Below, piece after piece: positions 2,827-28,207 of a stretch of DNA of 64,000 bases. Source of the stretch: Enterobacteria phage vB_EcoM_IME540. Within the stretch, counting starts at the first letter, position 1. The number at the start of each line of letters is the position of its first letter. The stretch is taken from sequence record MT150133.1; one strand, 5' to 3'. A program made the position numbers and the translations under genes. The notes under the pieces are model-generated. The model ran no database searches, was not told the origin of the DNA, and saw nothing but the letters and a program-made list of their open reading frames with translations.

Positions 2827-3399
2827 TCAACTCGTTATTTCTATCCAGTGCTTCCTGCACAATGACACGTAAGAATCGTTGCCACCTATAGAAACTTGGG
2901 CTCCGTCCTTAATTGCGATACCATCTTGGATACGAGCCGTCATAGTAGCTTTACGGCCGCAATGGCACACACCTTTGTACTCAACGAGTTTATCTGCCGT
3001 AGCGAGTAATTCAGCAGAGCCAGGAAACAGTTTACCCTGAAAATCAGTTCTTAGCCCATAACACATAACTGGAACATTATAATTGTCTACTATCTTCGCC
3101 AGTTGTTTTATCTGTGCAGGTTCTAAGAACTGTGCTTCATCCACAAATACACAGTGGATATCTTTTTGAGATTCAGCCCAACGATAGAACTCGTATAGGT
3201 CCATATCCGGAGTCACGGCATTAGCCTCTTGACTAATCCCTATACGAGACGAAATGCTATGGCTTGATTCTCTATTGTCTACCGCGGGCTTTAAAAGGAG
3301 TACGCCCATACCACGTTCTTTGTAGTTATGAGCTGCCGTTAGCAATGAAGCGGTTTTCCCGGAATTCATCGCCGCATAGTGAAACATCAAGCTTGCCAT
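2827..3399 (-). CDS. tk: thymidine kinase
   Basis: 190 aa; P-loop AAMNSGKTASLL, C-terminal CHCG...SLCRKHW zinc motif; close match to T4 Tk as recalled. Confidence 0.92.
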   Translation of the reverse strand: MASLMFHYAAMNSGKTASLLTAAHNYKERGMGVLLLKPAVDNRESSHSISSRIGISQEANAVTPDMDLYEFYRWAESQKDIHCVFVDEAQFLEPAQIKQLAKIVDNYNVPVMCYGLRTDFQGKLFPGSAELLATADKLVEYKGVCHCGRKATMTARIQDGIAIKDGAQVSIGGNDSYVSLCRKHWIEITS

Positions 3400-4124
3400 T
3401 TAAATACAACTCCTCTATAAGAGCAATTAGGATAACCTTTGCTTATAGCTATCTTTTTAAACATATATGCTGAAGGCTTATTGGATTCTTCCCATAAGAG
3501 TTTTAATTCATCGTAAAATTTCCAAGATTCGTTTCTTATAGGAGAAGGTTTTCCTGCCATAGCGCCCTTTTTACCGTACATGGGATTCTTTTTGCCCTTT
3601 TTGGCGTTACTCATATTTTCTATGGTTTCAGCGCTATGTTTAAATCCTTTTAATTTTTTAGAGGCTAATCCTATTTTAGCTTTATGCTCATCACTAAATC
3701 CTATTCTATTGGAATAATGGTTTAAACCTTTATTAGAAGTGGTGAATTTAGAAGCTTCTATTCTGGCTTTGCTCCATTTAACTCCTTTTCTAGACCTAGA
3801 CATTTTCTGTTTAGTTAAATTAGATAATTTGGTTCCTTTCTTTTTACCTCTTCCGCCATCAGCAAAATTTAAAGAATGCTTACCATATTTTAATTTAGCC
3901 TTTTCAACTAAAGGAATTTCGGCGGCATACGCCTCTTCTTCAGATTCGAAGAATTCTAATATACGAGTTTTATAAGGATGCTTTTTACAAATATTTTTAA
4001 CTACCGTACCACTTCCATAATACCCGTCTGAAAGATTATCAGTGGAGTGTTTACCTACATAGTAATAATTTGCCTTATGGGTTTTTATTACAGTCAAGTA
4101 ATTATAATGGAATTCCTTTGCCAT
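3387..4124 (-). CDS. GIY-YIG-family homing endonuclease-like protein (seg-like)
   Basis: N-terminal YLTVIK...YYYVGKHST...GYYGSG (GIY-YIG variant); basic region with repeated K/G-rich NPMYGKKG (NUMOD3-like) motifs. Confidence 0.65.
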   Translation of the reverse strand: MAKEFHYNYLTVIKTHKANYYYVGKHSTDNLSDGYYGSGTVVKNICKKHPYKTRILEFFESEEEAYAAEIPLVEKAKLKYGKHSLNFADGGRGKKKGTKLSNLTKQKMSRSRKGVKWSKARIEASKFTTSNKGLNHYSNRIGFSDEHKAKIGLASKKLKGFKHSAETIENMSNAKKGKKNPMYGKKGAMAGKPSPIRNESWKFYDELKLLWEESNKPSAYMFKKIAISKGYPNCSYRGVVFKWQA

Positions 4125-4340: not shown

Positions 4341-4528
4341 TATTCTTCTACATGCTGCTTACGTTTATTTTTATCTATAAAAGTATATTCAACATATTCA
4401 CCGATATACCATTTATCGGTGTTGTGTTGACTTTTTATAGGGCATTTAGTTACTCGGGTTTCGGACCAGTGTCGAATAATTTCCGCTTTATTTTTAGGGT
4501 CAAACGGATGCGGGTAATGGGCTTTCAT
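4316..4528 (-). CDS. hypothetical small protein (70 aa)
   Basis: ORF track; overlaps neighbours, start uncertain. Confidence 0.3.
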   Translation of the reverse strand: MKAHYPHPFDPKNKAEIIRHWSETRVTKCPIKSQHNTDKWYIGEYVEYTFIDKNKRKQHVEEYCLKVQWL

Positions 4529-4967
4529 AATCTACCACCACTAAATTAATATCAGGAGTAAACAAATTAATCAATTGGTAAACCTTGTCCCAATCACCAC
4601 CAGCAATACCACAACCGATGCGAGGAATATAAATTCTTGGTTTAAACAAAAGACCTTTTGCTTGTTGATTTAATTCTATCATACAGTTTACTAAAGCACC
4701 GTAATCAAGATTAGGGCCTGGTTCGTATTGGGTGTATAAATTATAGCAAATTTGGCCCTTATTACCTGTGGCTTGAGTAAACGTGCCAAGTTTTTCCAAA
4801 TGGCCTAAATAAGTGGTTTTATCGATAGCGAGAATAGGCGGATAAGCCTTAGCCAATTGCCCAGCTACACCTGAACCCATTGTGTGGAAACAGTTACACC
4901 CGTGTGCAACATTATTACCTTGAAGAAATAGGGCGACAATATCGCCCTTAATATAATCAATAATCAT
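4500..4967 (-). CDS. macro-domain-like protein (putative ADP-ribose binding/hydrolase)
   Basis: 155 aa; motifs GDIVALF...N...GSGVAGQ and C-terminal IPRIGCGIAGGDW resemble macro-domain glycine-rich loops; assignment from motif recognition only. Confidence 0.45.
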   Translation of the reverse strand: MIIDYIKGDIVALFLQGNNVAHGCNCFHTMGSGVAGQLAKAYPPILAIDKTTYLGHLEKLGTFTQATGNKGQICYNLYTQYEPGPNLDYGALVNCMIELNQQAKGLLFKPRIYIPRIGCGIAGGDWDKVYQLINLFTPDINLVVVDYESPLPASV

Positions 4968-5320
4968 TTAGAGTTTAATCCTCGATTGTATGAATCAACG
5001 AGTCTGTCTACCATAGACGCGCACATTTCTTTGTACTTTTTATCAGATGGAATACATTCAGTAACGTTTAGACGTTGCTCGTATCTTTTAGAAAGAGTTT
5101 TCTCTTTCATTCGACGATGCTCTACGTCGTTCTGCCCATCTTTAAAAGCAGCCGTGATTTTTGAACTGAATTCGATAATGCATTCAGTATTACTCGGATG
5201 ACAATAATCTTTTGCTGTACGGGTAGCATACTCGACAATTGAATTATTACTATCATAAACTTGTGACGCTAATACTCCCGGAGCAATCAACATAAGCGCT
5301 ATAGTCATCTGCTTAATCAT
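4964..5320 (-). CDS. putative secreted/periplasmic Cys-containing protein (118 aa)
   Basis: N-terminal signal-peptide-like MIKQMTIALMLIAPGVLASQ; four Cys in mature part. Confidence 0.45.
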   Translation of the reverse strand: MIKQMTIALMLIAPGVLASQVYDSNNSIVEYATRTAKDYCHPSNTECIIEFSSKITAAFKDGQNDVEHRRMKEKTLSKRYEQRLNVTECIPSDKKYKEMCASMVDRLVDSYNRGLNSK

Positions 5321-5884
5321 TTAATATACCGCCTCAAACATCTTTTTAGATTTTAGATAATTGGCCTTTTCTAGAACTTCAGAAGCATATTTACTGCCTG
5401 CTTCGACGTTCCAGCCCGCATTATAAGAAGCAATCGCTTTTCTCAGGTCACCTTTGTGAACATCAATCCAATAAGACAGTTCAATGTAGGCCCAAGAGGC
5501 ACTGTTCTGTCGTTTTTGGACCATACGAATTATTTCTTTGTCTGACATCTTCCAACCTACCTGTTGAACACGACTTCTTAACGTAGGCAAGTAATTTTGG
5601 AACATGCCATAAGCATGGTGCTTATCTTTATTTAAACCCTGATTAATTCCGGCAGATGATTCCTGCCATAGTAATCCGGCCATAATATATCCTAATCCTT
5701 TTTGATTAGGGGTTTCTTTGAACTTTCCCGACTTTTGGTATTGTTCACCGAAAGCATACGCATAATGTAAATTATCGAGCTGGGTTTCTGTAAATACGGG
5801 TTCTGCTGCACTTACAGAAAACGAACCACACATAATAGCCGCTATTAAAGAATATTTAAGTTTTTTTAGAAAAATCATAATCAA
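5321..5884 (-). CDS. putative secreted lytic transglycosylase (SLT-domain-like)
   Basis: Signal-peptide-like N-terminus; motifs LLWQESS ... AYGMFQ ... ASYNAGW match the E-S / GLMQ / AYNxG pattern of SLT domains. Confidence 0.5.
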   Translation of the reverse strand: MIMIFLKKLKYSLIAAIMCGSFSVSAAEPVFTETQLDNLHYAYAFGEQYQKSGKFKETPNQKGLGYIMAGLLWQESSAGINQGLNKDKHHAYGMFQNYLPTLRSRVQQVGWKMSDKEIIRMVQKRQNSASWAYIELSYWIDVHKGDLRKAIASYNAGWNVEAGSKYASEVLEKANYLKSKKMFEAVY

Positions 5885-6590
5885 TAAGTCCTCGGTAATC
5901 TACATTAGGGAAGCCGTTCTTAATTGCGATTTTACTAAATCTTCCACACTTGAGCTTATTATTATCTACCCATAATTTATATAATTGTGAATACATCGGT
6001 TCATGCCATATAGGGGATTTACGCAAAGAGGCTTTTTTCCTTTCTATAGTTTCTTTAGAATTTTGTATGGCTTTAAATTTTTGTCTATTTTCAGGATTTT
6101 CAAAATACTTAACCCGTTTTTCAGACATTTTAGCTTTTACTTTTGGCGAATTTAAAATTTCTTTGAGCCGTTCTTTAGAGCCTTCCTTTTCAAAATACTT
6201 TATTAAAGCCATTGAATGAGCAGCCCTATTTTCCTTTTTAGAGAAAAATAAAATTTTATTAATAGATTGCAATTTTGAAAATGATTCTTTAGCCAACTTA
6301 TAATTTTCAGAATCTACAAAATAAGACCTTTGTTTTGAATTTGAAGTAGAGCTCATATTTAACCAGGCAAAATTCAACCCATAGTGGTTTGGATTAGCTT
6401 TGGCTAGATACATATGGGCCAAATAATGTTCATCAGCATAAAGCTCAACTAAATTGTCTTGAGTGTCAGGACCACCAACACAACTCGGAATTATATGATG
6501 CTTTTCTGTATAGGCGTCATTAGGTGTATCCCTAGATAAGGCCGCATTTATTATTTTATAGTAGTCATATGGATATTTTATAGTTTCCAT
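5856..6590 (-). CDS. HNH-family homing endonuclease-like protein (mob-like)
   Basis: N-terminal EKHHIIPSCVGGPDTQDNLVELYADEH (HNH motif); basic C-terminal region; C-terminal KIAIKNGFPNVDYRG module shared with the ORF at 3387-4124. Confidence 0.65.
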   Translation of the reverse strand: METIKYPYDYYKIINAALSRDTPNDAYTEKHHIIPSCVGGPDTQDNLVELYADEHYLAHMYLAKANPNHYGLNFAWLNMSSTSNSKQRSYFVDSENYKLAKESFSKLQSINKILFFSKKENRAAHSMALIKYFEKEGSKERLKEILNSPKVKAKMSEKRVKYFENPENRQKFKAIQNSKETIERKKASLRKSPIWHEPMYSQLYKLWVDNNKLKCGRFSKIAIKNGFPNVDYRGLIDYDFSKKT

Positions 6591-6597
6591 ACTGTCC

Positions 6598-7056
6598 TCA
6601 CAAGTAAATTACTTTCGTGCTGGTTTTACCTTCTAAACGTTTAGAGTTAACAAATGCCATACGACATTTAAGGGAATATCCTTTATCAGGATGTTTACGG
6701 TCTACTGTCATACCTAGCCATAAGGTTTTATCGGTAATTTCGAGACGCAATGGCCGATACACTTTACCAGGGACAATTTCGGATTCTACATCAGGCAGAG
6801 GTTCCTGGATTAAGAATTCATGGATTTCTTTAACATGGTTATGGAGTTGCTTGAATAAAGCAAAAACGTATTTTTCGTCGATTTCACGTTGGATAGCACG
6901 GTCCAACAAGTGGTTAGAGTACTTAATAAAGAAGGCTGGGACTCCGCTCTTAATGGCGGCTTTTTTGATGGACGTATTCAGTTCACGGAATTCGGTTTCG
7001 AACTGACGACGTAATTTATTGCGGCGGATGAATACTTCTGAATTAATTTCTGACAT
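6598..7056 (-). CDS. regB: RegB-like endoribonuclease
   Basis: 152 aa; EVFIRRNKLRR...HLLDRAIQREIDE...LEITD..LWLG resemble T4 RegB as recalled; position between tk and denV as in T4. Confidence 0.6.
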   Translation of the reverse strand: MSEINSEVFIRRNKLRRQFETEFRELNTSIKKAAIKSGVPAFFIKYSNHLLDRAIQREIDEKYVFALFKQLHNHVKEIHEFLIQEPLPDVESEIVPGKVYRPLRLEITDKTLWLGMTVDRKHPDKGYSLKCRMAFVNSKRLEGKTSTKVIYL

Positions 7057-9610: not shown

Positions 9611-10009
9611 TTATTTATAGGTTTTCATCCAATTCTTGAACAAAGCTGCGACGTCTTTCTCTTTAACGTTCAGTTTAACGTCCAACATTTTACCACCGGC
9701 AGCACGTGTCTGACGAATCTTAGCAGTACCGGTTTCGCCATTCCACTCAACATAATACTGTCCGGTGTTCATTGCAATACCGTCGCCGTAGTCTTCATTT
9801 TTAGAAGTGGTGAATGCCAGCTTCATAGTCTTAGATACACGAGCCTGCATGCCTGTCTGAAGGGCATTACGAACGCGAATAACCTGAGGAGTGGCCTGGG
9901 TCAGGTTTTCATTCAGTTCTTCAGTGAACTCTTCAGATTCAAACATCGCCAAAAGTTCTTTAGATGCAGGAATTACATTCTCTGCGATAAATTCATTATA
10001 AGTTTTCAT
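9611..10009 (-). CDS. internal-protein-like (capsid-targeted) protein, ipIII position
   Basis: N-terminus [11 protein letters not shown] (capsid-targeting-like); between denV and e. Confidence 0.6.
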
Positions 10010-10490
10010 ATGCTTTCCAAGTACCTGTTTTAAATGTGGAAATCACGCGCTTAGCACGATTAGGAGTTTGTTTATACCAACGGGATTGAGCCAGGTTAAC
10101 TGCTGCATCATCCCAACGTTTTTGCTGAAGCATACGCAGAGAGTTAGTGAACCCTGCTACGCCTGCTTCACCCATTTGGAAGACCATGTTAATTAAAGCA
10201 CAACGACGAACTTCGTCCAGTACATCATAAACAGGTTTCAATTTAGGATTACGCAGAATAGCTCTACGAGCATTTTCAACCGACCGGTTAAAGAGTTGTT
10301 CGGCTTCAGCCATAGTAATACGACCATTGCAAACTCGACCCATAAGCTTATCAAGTTCAGCCCGAGCAACATCTTTAGAAGGATTCTTAGTAATCAATTG
10401 GCCAATACCAATAGTATAGTATCCCTCAGTATCCTTATATAAGTCTAATTTACAGCCTTCATCAAGGCGTAACATATCAAAAATATCCAT
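9996..10490 (-). CDS. e: lysozyme (endolysin, T4 e)
   Basis: 164 aa; [12 protein letters not shown]...[15 protein letters not shown]... closely matches T4 lysozyme incl. catalytic Glu/Asp/Thr context. Confidence 0.95.
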
Positions 10491-26468: not shown

Positions 26469-28207
26469 TTAACATGTCTGATAATGTAAGTTGGTTCGTC
26501 GGTGTGGTTGAAGACCGTATGGACCCACTCCAACAAGGACGCGTTCGAGTTCGTGTCTGGGGCCTGCATCCTTACGAAAAGGTCCAAGGTCCTGTAAAAG
26601 GCCTTCGTACAGAGGATTTACCGTGGATGTCCGTATTAATGCCTACATCTTCTGCCTCTGTTTCTGGTATCCAAACCGCTATGACTGGTATGGTTCCAGG
26701 TACTCAGGTTTATGGGCACTTTCTTGATAAGTGGAAATTAAACGGGCTTGTCCTCGGTACATATGGTTCCGCTTCAAGACAAAAGGCTAATCCTAATGAA
26801 GGTTTTAGTGACCCGACAGGTCAATACCCACTTTATTTGGGTAATGATGCTGCAGCACTAAACCGAGGTGGTGAAGTTGGATACGATGCCACTTCTAACG
26901 TAATACAAGATGCAAACACCGATGTAGGTATTAACCCAGACGGTTTGGATTTGAGCCAAGTCAAGCCTGATGATAATCCTAATTTCACAATAGAAAACAT
27001 GCTTCATCGTGATGAAGGGCTTAGACTGAAGGTATATTGGGATACCGAAGGTTATCCTACTATAGGTATAGGCCACCTTATCACACCACAACCTATTAGA
27101 GATATGAATCGAATAAACAAAATATTATCTAATCAGGTAGGACGAGAAGTTAAAGGTAACCCTGGTGCAATATCAATGGATGAGGCTTCTAAATTATTCC
27201 AAGAAGACCTTAAAAAAGTCCAAAACGATATAGGTCGGCATAGTGTTGTAGGTCCTGTTTACAATAAAGAAAACCGTTCAAGACAAATGGCTCTTGAAAA
27301 CATGGCTTTCCAAATGGGATTAGGTGGATTGGCTAAATTCCGTGGAATGCTTAGTGCAATGCTAATAGGCGATTATAAAAAGGCATTTGAGGAAGCTCGT
27401 AATTCAGTATGGTTTAACCAAACTAAAGGTCGCGCATCAAGGGTGTCAATGATTATCCTCACAGGTAACATGGAATCATATGGTATTATGGCCCCTAAAG
27501 AAAGGTCATTTAATGGCCGTTCGTATAGAATGATTCAAACCTTTGTGGCCCCTACAAATTCAGACCCTGCCGACCCGTGGACTCCAGAAGACACAAGGAT
27601 TCTTTTTAAAGAACCTGATTCTAGTTATAAAGGCGAATATCCATATGTCCAAACCATGCAAACTGAAGGCGGGCATATCCAAGAATTCGATAATACCCCA
27701 GGGCAAGAACGATACCGTTTAATCCATCCTACCGGTAGTTATGAAGAAGTTGCTCCTGACGGACGTAAAACTTCTAAGACGGTAGCCGATGGTTATTATA
27801 TGACCCAAGGCGATTCAAATACTTATGTTGGTGGTAATAATAAGGTCAATATAGGCGGCGATGAAACCTATTATAATATGGCAAACGTTCGTCGTCAAAC
27901 TGACGGGTCTGAAAGCATCCATATTCGTGGTAATGAAACTAAAACAGTAGAAGGTGACGGAACCCTTATTGTTAAAGGAAACGTAACAATTCTTGTCGAG
28001 GGTAGTGCTGATATAACTGTTAAGGGCGATGCTAAAACATTAGTTGAAGGCAATCATGACTATACCGTAAATGGAAACGTTAAATGGTCTGTAAATGGAA
28101 ACGTTGATATGACTGTTGCAGGTAATTGGTCTGAAACTATGTCAACTATGAGTTCTATTGCATCAGGTCAATATACTATTGATGGTTCGAGGATTGACAT
28201 TGGCTAA
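26465..28207 (+). CDS. 5: gp5 baseplate hub/tail lysozyme (cell-puncturing device)
   Basis: 580 aa; internal lysozyme domain (YWDTEGYPTIGIGHLI) and C-terminal beta-helix VxGxxxxx repeats. Confidence 0.92.
   Translation: MINMSDNVSWFVGVVEDRMDPLQQGRVRVRVWGLHPYEKVQGPVKGLRTEDLPWMSVLMPTSSASVSGIQTAMTGMVPGTQVYGHFLDKWKLNGLVLGTYGSASRQKANPNEGFSDPTGQYPLYLGNDAAALNRGGEVGYDATSNVIQDANTDVGINPDGLDLSQVKPDDNPNFTIENMLHRDEGLRLKVYWDTEGYPTIGIGHLITPQPIRDMNRINKILSNQVGREVKGNPGAISMDEASKLFQEDLKKVQNDIGRHSVVGPVYNKENRSRQMALENMAFQMGLGGLAKFRGMLSAMLIGDYKKAFEEARNSVWFNQTKGRASRVSMIILTGNMESYGIMAPKERSFNGRSYRMIQTFVAPTNSDPADPWTPEDTRILFKEPDSSYKGEYPYVQTMQTEGGHIQEFDNTPGQERYRLIHPTGSYEEVAPDGRKTSKTVADGYYMTQGDSNTYVGGNNKVNIGGDETYYNMANVRRQTDGSESIHIRGNETKTVEGDGTLIVKGNVTILVEGSADITVKGDAKTLVEGNHDYTVNGNVKWSVNGNVDMTVAGNWSETMSTMSSIASGQYTIDGSRIDIG

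Follow-up and report, generated by a model that had tools for sequence, protein, structure and literature searches.

Two adjacent open reading frames (ORFs) on the minus strand of Enterobacteria phage vB_EcoM_IME540 (MT150133.1), at positions 5321-5884 and 4964-5320 of the 64,000-nt stretch analysed here (the window), raise the question of what two small proteins with signal-like N-termini do for a T4-like phage, and in which compartment of the cell they do it. An earlier note on this DNA had described both as secreted proteins made early, the larger one SLT-like and the smaller one a periplasmic protein with four cysteines, and had named them as candidates for superinfection exclusion or, in the manner of Spackle, for modulation of the tail lysozyme. 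The two ORFs are present in the window as described and, by sequence comparison, are the orthologs of T4 vs.1 and vs in a Dhakavirus-like relative of T4. The explanation that best accounts for the locus as a whole is that Vs.1 is an exported GH23 enzyme and Vs an exported, disulfide-bonded envelope protein, and we put the probability of this at roughly 0.72. The main yield of the analysis is a documented conflict between the hallmarks of an exported, disulfide-bonded protein that run through the whole Vs family and the valyl-tRNA synthetase (ValRS) modifier label that Vs carries in hundreds of annotations.

Identification of the gene pair

The larger ORF (5321-5884, minus strand), taken from the ORF list, encodes a protein with 61% identity to T4 Vs.1 and matches PHROG 600 (E=1.4e-63), which is labelled as of unknown function. 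Read from the TTG at 5884 the protein would have 187 residues, and read from the ATG at 5878 it would have 185. The ATG is the more likely start, because GAGGA lies 10 nt upstream of it and the resulting length equals that of the 185-residue database protein P0001, which is 98% identical to the Vs.1 of the window. The gene ends with a TAA at 5321-5323, and the ATG of the smaller ORF begins on the next base, leaving a gap of 0 nt. This second ORF (4964-5320, minus strand; 118 residues) is 45% identical to T4 Vs (E=1e-29) and matches PHROG 1256 (E=3.8e-34), labelled 'valyl tRNA synthetase modifier'. All Vs homologs carry a precomputed assignment to Pfam PF26829.

The annotations of IME08 and T4 name the two ORFs vs.1 and vs, and the gene block regB-vs.1-vs-tk.4 is common to T4 and the annotated relatives. 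DNA around the pair matches hundreds of T4-like phages, with the best matches to Dhakavirus-type genomes (IME08, Bp7 and QL01). We compared 47 loci from the relatives of the window, made up of T4, IME08 and 45 viral contigs, and the vs.1/vs junction lay between -8 and +3 nt in all of them. In T4 the two genes fall in the 'early RNA / middle protein' class and their products have been detected (PMC9697503, supplementary files 4 and 6), which supports the early expression proposed in the earlier note. As vs.1 and vs are already named genes of T4, the pair is not new as a discovery, and the observation in its original form adds little: a 2006 paper had already noted that vs.1 resembles SLT, and export and toxicity of vs.1 have been reported. 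The earlier note had missed the T4 names, the 2006 report, the findings of the Belin laboratory on export and toxicity, and the ValRS-modifier label of the small ORF.

Export signals of Vs.1 and Vs

We called export signals by rule: the n-region had to carry positive charge, the h-region to be hydrophobic over 10-18 residues, and positions -3 and -1 to hold small residues. Both N-termini showed the three-part layout of a signal peptide with an AxA-type site, namely MIFLKKLK-YSLIAAIMCGSFSVSAA/EP in Vs.1 and MIK-QMTIALMLIAPGVLA/SQ in Vs, where the slash marks the predicted cleavage site. From this analysis of n-, h- and c-regions, the putative signal peptide of Vs.1 covers residues 1-27 (MIMIFLKKLKYSLIAAIMCGSFSVSAA/EP; 5804-5884, minus strand) and that of Vs residues 1-18 (MIKQMTIALMLIAPGVLA/SQ; 5267-5320, minus strand). 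Both segments were unstructured in AlphaFold models, with a predicted local distance difference test score (pLDDT) below 50-60 and, for residues 1-24 of Vs.1, of about 50.

Conservation of these segments was marked. A signal-type N-terminus was present in the Vs-like proteins of 47/47 loci and in the Vs.1 proteins of 45/47, the two misses being due to a wrong start picked by the ORF caller. The first 20 residues of Vs vary in sequence while their hydrophobicity is kept in every one of the 47 copies, and the Vs.1 homologs of Ackermannviridae, Felixounavirus and Vibrio phages also bear signal or lipoprotein peptides. When this same crude rule was applied to the 84 non-overlapping ORFs of at least 70 residues in the window, four had signal-like N-termini, and two of these are the vs/vs.1 pair. 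By a rough estimate, the chance that two of four such ORFs adjoin is about 1 in 7, and the case for export therefore rests on conservation. The signal-peptide-like starts noticed earlier are thus supported both by the rule-based analysis and by their persistence across loci, and we consider the export of both proteins, together with the GH23 assignment of Vs.1 described below, to be likely or even very likely.

The Vs.1 signal peptide of the window is unlike that of its closest relatives (MKKVLATLLLTVSMSAHSV/EP) in sequence, with its signal character kept. An ORF for an HNH homing endonuclease (5856-6590, minus strand; PHROG 655, E=2.5e-36; weak match to Pfam HNH), which is found in neither IME08 nor T4, sits between regB (6598-7056) and vs.1 and reaches with its 3' end into the start of vs.1; we take it as context, outside the function of the pair. 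DNA alignment showed divergence from the HNH insertion through approximately codon 35 of vs.1, followed by near-identity to the relatives, indicating that, at the junction with the mobile element, the export signal was exchanged for a different one that also looks functional. At this junction (about 5780-5884), MKKVLATLLLTVSMSAHSV of the relatives is exchanged for MIFLKKLKYSLIAAIMCGSFSVSAA in the window, and export character is retained. A candidate lipobox in the Vs.1 of the window (A-I-M-C-G) was rejected, since a Met is atypical for position -1 and orthologs lack the cysteine.

Vs.1 as a predicted GH23 enzyme

The three SLT-type motifs quoted in the earlier note, QESS, AYGMFQ and YNAGW, were all found in Vs.1, at residues 74-77 (Q74-E75-S76-S77), 91-96 (A91-Y-G-M-F-Q96) and 154-158 (Y154-N-A-G-W158). 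E-S, G-L-M-Q and A-Y-N-x-G motifs define the family-1 lytic transglycosylases. In Vs.1 they fall within a predicted GH23/SLT-type, lysozyme-like catalytic domain of approximately residues 65-180 (5345-5692, minus strand). The predicted single catalytic glutamate is E75 of the W-Q-E-S motif, whose codon (gaa, 5660-5662) was read directly in the sequence; on the same strand, G93-M-F-Q96 (motif II, 5597-5608) would be the equivalent of GLMQ and Y154-N155-A-G157 (motif III, 5414-5425) that of AYNxG. E75, S77, G93, F95, Q96, Y154, N155 and G157 are invariant across 36 aligned sequences of the Vs.1 family. More remote homologs, with 27-46% identity, in Ackermannviridae, Felixounavirus, Vibrio, Acinetobacter and Aeromonas phages retain E75 within an E-[ST] motif. 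Of the 36 aligned members, 35 matched Pfam SLT (PF01464) at E<=0.1, the lowest value being 1.3e-7, and a precomputed assignment to PF01464 is attached to several database relatives. NCBIfam held no model for Vs.1 or Vs.

The AlphaFold model of Vs.1 (pLDDT 80; predicted template-modelling score, pTM, 0.74) showed the lysozyme-like alpha-helical fold with an active-site cleft that is expected of GH23, and the top Foldseek matches to it were MltD, Slt, EtgA, MltE and Slt70, with probabilities up to 0.99. With signal peptides and a peptidoglycan-related fold both found, the core of the earlier reading survives. No Asp or Glu is conserved between E75 and G93 in the Vs.1 alignment. The lack of a conserved second acid after E75 favours transglycosylase chemistry over hydrolysis, and Vs.1 is therefore most likely, judging from the alignment, a lytic transglycosylase giving 1,6-anhydro-MurNAc ends and not a hydrolase.

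Related findings have been reported for T4-like phages. In six T4-like genomes, Nolan et al. (2006) saw vs.1 match SLT marginally yet consistently, and they mentioned earlier PSI-BLAST matches of vs.1 to lysozyme (PMC1524935). The Belin laboratory, which employs pBAD18-vs.1 as a toxic construct, refers to T4 vs.1 as 'an exported lysozyme' and gives a 2009 Geneva thesis as its source (PMC11434276; also in the preprint version). The window also contains the gp5 lysozyme domain (26990-27481, plus strand) and, at 9999-10490 on the minus strand, an ortholog of endolysin e that is 75% identical to T4 e. Going by its modelled fold, Vs.1 is a third enzyme that cleaves the cell wall, separate from e and gp5 as the earlier note had held.

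Homologs of Vs.1 were found in 2,039 phage records, including those of Ackermannviridae, Felixounavirus and Vibrio phages. Three groups of large virulent myoviruses (Straboviridae, Ackermannviridae and Felixounavirus) thus all encode a predicted transglycosylase of the Vs.1 type with an export signal, which in T4 is made early. In Felix-O1-like phages such as Escherichia phage fjerdesal (L049 1980-2528), the homolog has a signal peptide and is labelled 'putative lysin'; it directly follows rIIA-rIIB and lies about 1.2 kb upstream of the spanin genes, a context that might help to find its role. GenBank and UniRef often mislabel Vs.1 homologs as 'RegB endoribonuclease' or 'site-specific RNA endonuclease' (KF669653.1 Marshall_110, L048 2001-2618; hits H34, H36 and H53-H55), a name apparently transferred from the neighbouring gene, and the label of Vs is often shortened to 'valyl-tRNA synthetase'.

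Sequence family and predicted fold of Vs

The four cysteines that the earlier note had counted in the small ORF are C40 (5201-5203), C47 (5180-5182), C89 (5054-5056) and C100 (5021-5023), in a segment that spans 5021-5203 on the minus strand; their codons, like that of E75, were checked directly in the sequence. All four are invariant in one alignment of the family (A3). In a broader one (A4) the C89 column is not invariant, the third cysteine of a divergent clade occupying a nearby column. Every full-length distant member of the family has all four, in the pattern FC-x5-10-C ... C-x8-10-C ... GL. The lengths of the cysteine loops vary, unlike those of a CxxC motif, and disulfide staples therefore suit the pattern better than a zinc site.

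An exhaustive search with a profile against 1.84 billion representative proteins yielded only 22 Vs clusters, and every full-length member from this search has a signal peptide. In the divergent clade the ordinary signal is replaced by a canonical lipobox (L-x-G-C), seen in 7/7 database members and in five viral loci, and the clade is still assigned to PF26829. The AlphaFold model of Vs (pLDDT 76.5) is a four-helix bundle in which the cysteine pairs flank the H1-H2 and H3-H4 loops, and the signal segment lies outside the predicted fold. From this model we predict the disulfides C40-C47 and C89-C100, as two hairpin staples. When Foldseek compared the model with the PDB, the 50 matches listed were all helical bundles of a generic kind, with probabilities no higher than 0.23, and gave no lead to a function. 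Full-length T4 Vs with an N-terminal His tag is insoluble in the E. coli cytoplasm (PMC8076793).

Shortened vs genes stand beside an intact vs.1 at two loci, one of 85 residues with an internal deletion (L003 3541-3795; Escherichia phage vB_EcoM_005) and one truncated to 65 residues (L036); these represent either true loss of vs or sequencing errors. In many related phages, a third ORF of 126-148 residues with a GYPE motif and two to four cysteines comes right after the Vs-like gene (L013 3875-4312, L035 3818-4234, L042 3851-4243, L045 3805-4248, L046 3845-4291 and L051 2776-3201). Most copies begin with a signal peptide ending in ...A(F/V)AW, and neither the window nor T4 has the ORF. Behind the third ORF in Acinetobacter phage PhaR5 come a fourth one, secreted or membrane-bound, and then an rI-like gene, an arrangement that looks like a cluster of envelope proteins.

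Function of Vs

Vs is annotated as a 'valyl-tRNA synthetase modifier' in more than 800 phage genomes. Judged by its universal signals, its lipobox clade and its disulfide-like cysteines, Vs does not appear to be a resident of the cytoplasm, and an unexported fraction of the protein may be compatible with this result. The sequence and the model together suggest an envelope protein and conflict with a cytoplasmic label. We therefore propose, tentatively and at less than even odds, that Vs does not act on cytoplasmic ValRS at all and is instead a Sec-exported, disulfide-bonded envelope protein of the Straboviridae, and a lipoprotein in some phages. In a 2025 HIDEN-SEQ preprint, vs showed the strongest depletion of any T4 gene when M9-glucose was compared with LB, and a clean knockout confirmed the result. 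This gives vs its first clear phenotype, which the preprint interprets through the ValRS label; the defect fits an envelope function and a ValRS function alike. If Vs indeed works in the envelope, the minimal-medium phenotype would be an envelope or peptidoglycan phenotype, and the classical tau factor would be encoded elsewhere in the region or would be bound to ValRS only after cell breakage.

The reading contained in the label is that Vs is a cytoplasmic tau peptide of about 10-13 kDa, which binds host ValRS and changes its stability and tRNA affinity. Its hydrophobic N-terminus would then be unused, or only partly used, for export, and its place next to vs.1 would simply reflect T4-type gene order. 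The annotation is universal, binding of Vs to ValRS is attributed to Muller and Marchin (1975/1977) in a passage of PMC8076793 that cites them second-hand, the M9-glucose-specific defect of the T4 knockout fits a role in translation or amino-acid supply, and the gene-order argument gains from the flanking genes regB and tk.4, which are as syntenic with vs as vs.1 is, and from the lack of any special co-variation between Vs and Vs.1. However, a canonical signal peptide in every family member is difficult to reconcile with such a peptide, and the lipobox would commit Vs to the membrane in a whole clade. The four variably spaced cysteines likewise point to disulfides, and the E. coli cytoplasm is not a place where such bonds form; the location of the signal segment outside the predicted fold also speaks against it. 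We regard the cytoplasmic reading as somewhat unlikely. Alternatively, Vs could be a periplasmic inhibitor or 'immunity' partner of Vs.1, co-translated and co-exported with it and preventing premature lysis, with the minimal-medium defect of the vs knockout arising from unrestrained Vs.1. The predicted export of both proteins, the close junction at all 47 loci, the adjacency of the pair even in distant Acinetobacter phages, the toxicity of Vs.1 alone (PMC11434276) and the deleterious effect of vs loss under some conditions are all consistent with this. A mirror-tree test with partial correlations, however, showed no co-variation of Vs and Vs.1 above that of the flanking-gene controls (partial r of 0.26 for the pair, compared with 0.32 and 0.30 for the controls), and the rate at which Vs diverges is twice that of the protein it is supposed to inhibit. 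An intact vs.1 accompanies the truncated vs of L003 and L036, Vs.1 homologs in Ackermannviridae, Felixounavirus and Vibrio phages have no Vs-like neighbour, two unrelated genes separate vs.1 from vs in GAP161, and the fold of Vs is unlike those of known lysozyme inhibitors among the 50 matches listed. We rejected co-evolution as support for a partnership, and discounted adjacency as evidence of one because regB and tk.4 are equally syntenic and adjacency is lost outside the Straboviridae. Vs is thus a Straboviridae-specific companion and not an obligate partner of Vs.1; the functional link between them is weak, and a dedicated inhibitor is improbable.

The earlier note had suggested a role of the pair in superinfection exclusion or in modulating the tail lysozyme. 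A wider form of this reading would have the pair act in superinfection exclusion, resistance to lysis from without or lysis inhibition, for instance by modulating incoming gp5 as Spackle does, or by conditioning the periplasm for the RI antiholin signal. Both proteins are early and predicted to be periplasmic, and T4 has rI about 2 kb downstream, oriented the same way. In PhaR5, where the pair is still adjacent, vs.1, vs, two more secreted ORFs and the rI-like gene are contiguous, hinting at a module for envelope or lysis control. Against this, T4 already has dedicated Sp and Imm proteins, the only published vs phenotype is medium-dependent plaque formation in single infection, and nothing ties Vs or Vs.1 to gp5. 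Likeness of Vs to Spackle, Ivy, MliC or PliG was found neither in the PDB sequence search nor among the 50 Foldseek matches listed. Export and the SLT fold have thus stood, whereas the proposed likeness to Spackle has gained no direct support, and we consider a role in exclusion or lysis control very unlikely.

Besides the results on co-variation, truncated vs genes, missing Vs-like neighbours and equal synteny given above, several points weigh against our preferred reading of an exported GH23 Vs.1 and an envelope Vs. The Vs.1 of the window scored 15.6 bits with Pfam SLT (E=0.012), below the gathering cut-off of 21.3, and sequence and profile searches of PDB chains returned nothing usable for Vs.1 or Vs, so that the fold assignment of Vs.1 rests on the predicted structure and the motifs. 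Export of Vs is predicted from sequence only. The minimal-medium defect of vs might also be expected of an aminoacylation factor. Neidhardt, Marchin and colleagues reportedly traced an in vivo change in host ValRS to the vs locus, which implies a cytoplasmic product, and in classical genetics the growth of phage on temperature-sensitive valS hosts is said to depend on vs, whose mutants were reportedly isolated through their effect on such hosts. The size of the purified tau factor, reportedly about 10 kDa, speaks for our reading and against the cytoplasmic one: with computed masses of 11.05 kDa for mature T4 Vs and 13.06 kDa for its precursor, it fits a processed and hence exported protein.

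Neighbouring genes and sequence signals

Directly downstream of vs lies the ortholog of tk.4 (4500-4967, minus strand), a macro-domain gene (Pfam Macro, E=8.5e-8) that overlaps the vs stop. T4 tk.4 has been renamed AdfM, an anti-DarTG2 counter-defence factor (preprint 10.1101/2025.11.20.689424). A terminator-like hairpin (4930-4948, minus strand) with an 8-bp stem, five G-C pairs and a T-rich tail lies 16 nt past the vs stop; it falls within the first codons of tk.4 and could serve to attenuate transcription or influence how tk.4 is translated. In the scanned region around the pair there were 8 terminator-like sites, compared with 4.0 +/- 2.2 in shuffled sequences. A promoter scan of the same surroundings gave 18 sites, with 17.2 in shuffled sequence, and since this is no excess we make no claim of a promoter. 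The early region also holds a second mobile-endonuclease gene, a seg-like ORF containing NUMOD3 (PHROG 314; 3387-4124, minus strand), of a kind that only some relatives have.

Proposed model

In the model that we favour, vs.1 and vs would be transcribed together early from the minus strand, within the regB-vs.1-vs-tk.4 block. The Vs.1 precursor would be exported by Sec and most likely cleaved after Ala27, releasing a mature protein of about 18.5 kDa that consists of a single GH23 (goose-lysozyme/SLT) domain. From within the periplasm, in the early-middle period, this enzyme would cut the glycan strands of host peptidoglycan with Glu75 as the single acid/base. Vs, too, would most likely be exported and, on the combined evidence of sequence and model, cleaved after Ala18 to give a periplasmic four-helix bundle of about 11.6 kDa, held by the C40-C47 and C89-C100 disulfides; in one phage clade it would be tethered as a lipoprotein. 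Its site of action would most likely be the cell envelope, where it may tune or restrain Vs.1 or another envelope process. The ValRS label would then reflect a small unexported pool of Vs, binding after cell breakage, or an old mis-assigned genetic locus. If this placement of Vs is right, it redirects work on the vs phenotype and corrects a widespread annotation, and it leaves the ValRS factor in need of another explanation.

Comparison with known systems

Vs, if periplasmic as predicted, resembles Spackle (gp61.3), Ivy, MliC/PliC and PliG in being a small periplasmic protein made with a signal peptide, in each case by a phage or host that also encodes an enzyme of lysozyme fold. Spackle is also early, and is described as helical (PMC7650644 and PMC7677548). 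However, the target of Spackle is a GH24 domain, that of gp5, while Vs.1 belongs by prediction to GH23, and the searches described above detected no similarity in sequence or fold between Vs and Spackle or the other inhibitors.

The closest counterparts of the pair are its T4 orthologs. T4 Vs (NP_049724, UniProt P13310, PHROG 1256, PF26829) has the same position, a signal peptide (MTKILVLCIGLISFSASASA/D) and the same four cysteines as the Vs of the window. The two do not differ in kind, and the contrast lies between the picture drawn from sequence and the functional label. T4 Vs.1 (NP_049725, UniProt P13311, PHROG 600), at 61% identity over the full length, shares with the Vs.1 of the window its position between regB and vs, the signal peptide and the SLT motifs. 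It differs in the signal sequence and the first mature residues, because in the window the inserted HNH gene lies just upstream of vs.1 and overlaps its start.

We also compared Vs.1 with family-1 lytic transglycosylases and other GH23 enzymes, namely E. coli Slt70, MltC, MltD and MltE, P. aeruginosa MltF and Slt, EtgA of the type III secretion system and goose-type lysozyme. Vs.1 is only 10-20% identical to these enzymes, and it differs from them in being a minimal single domain without a LysM domain, doughnut or lipid anchor. Moreover, a phage encodes it, and its early synthesis sets it apart from endolysins and virion proteins.

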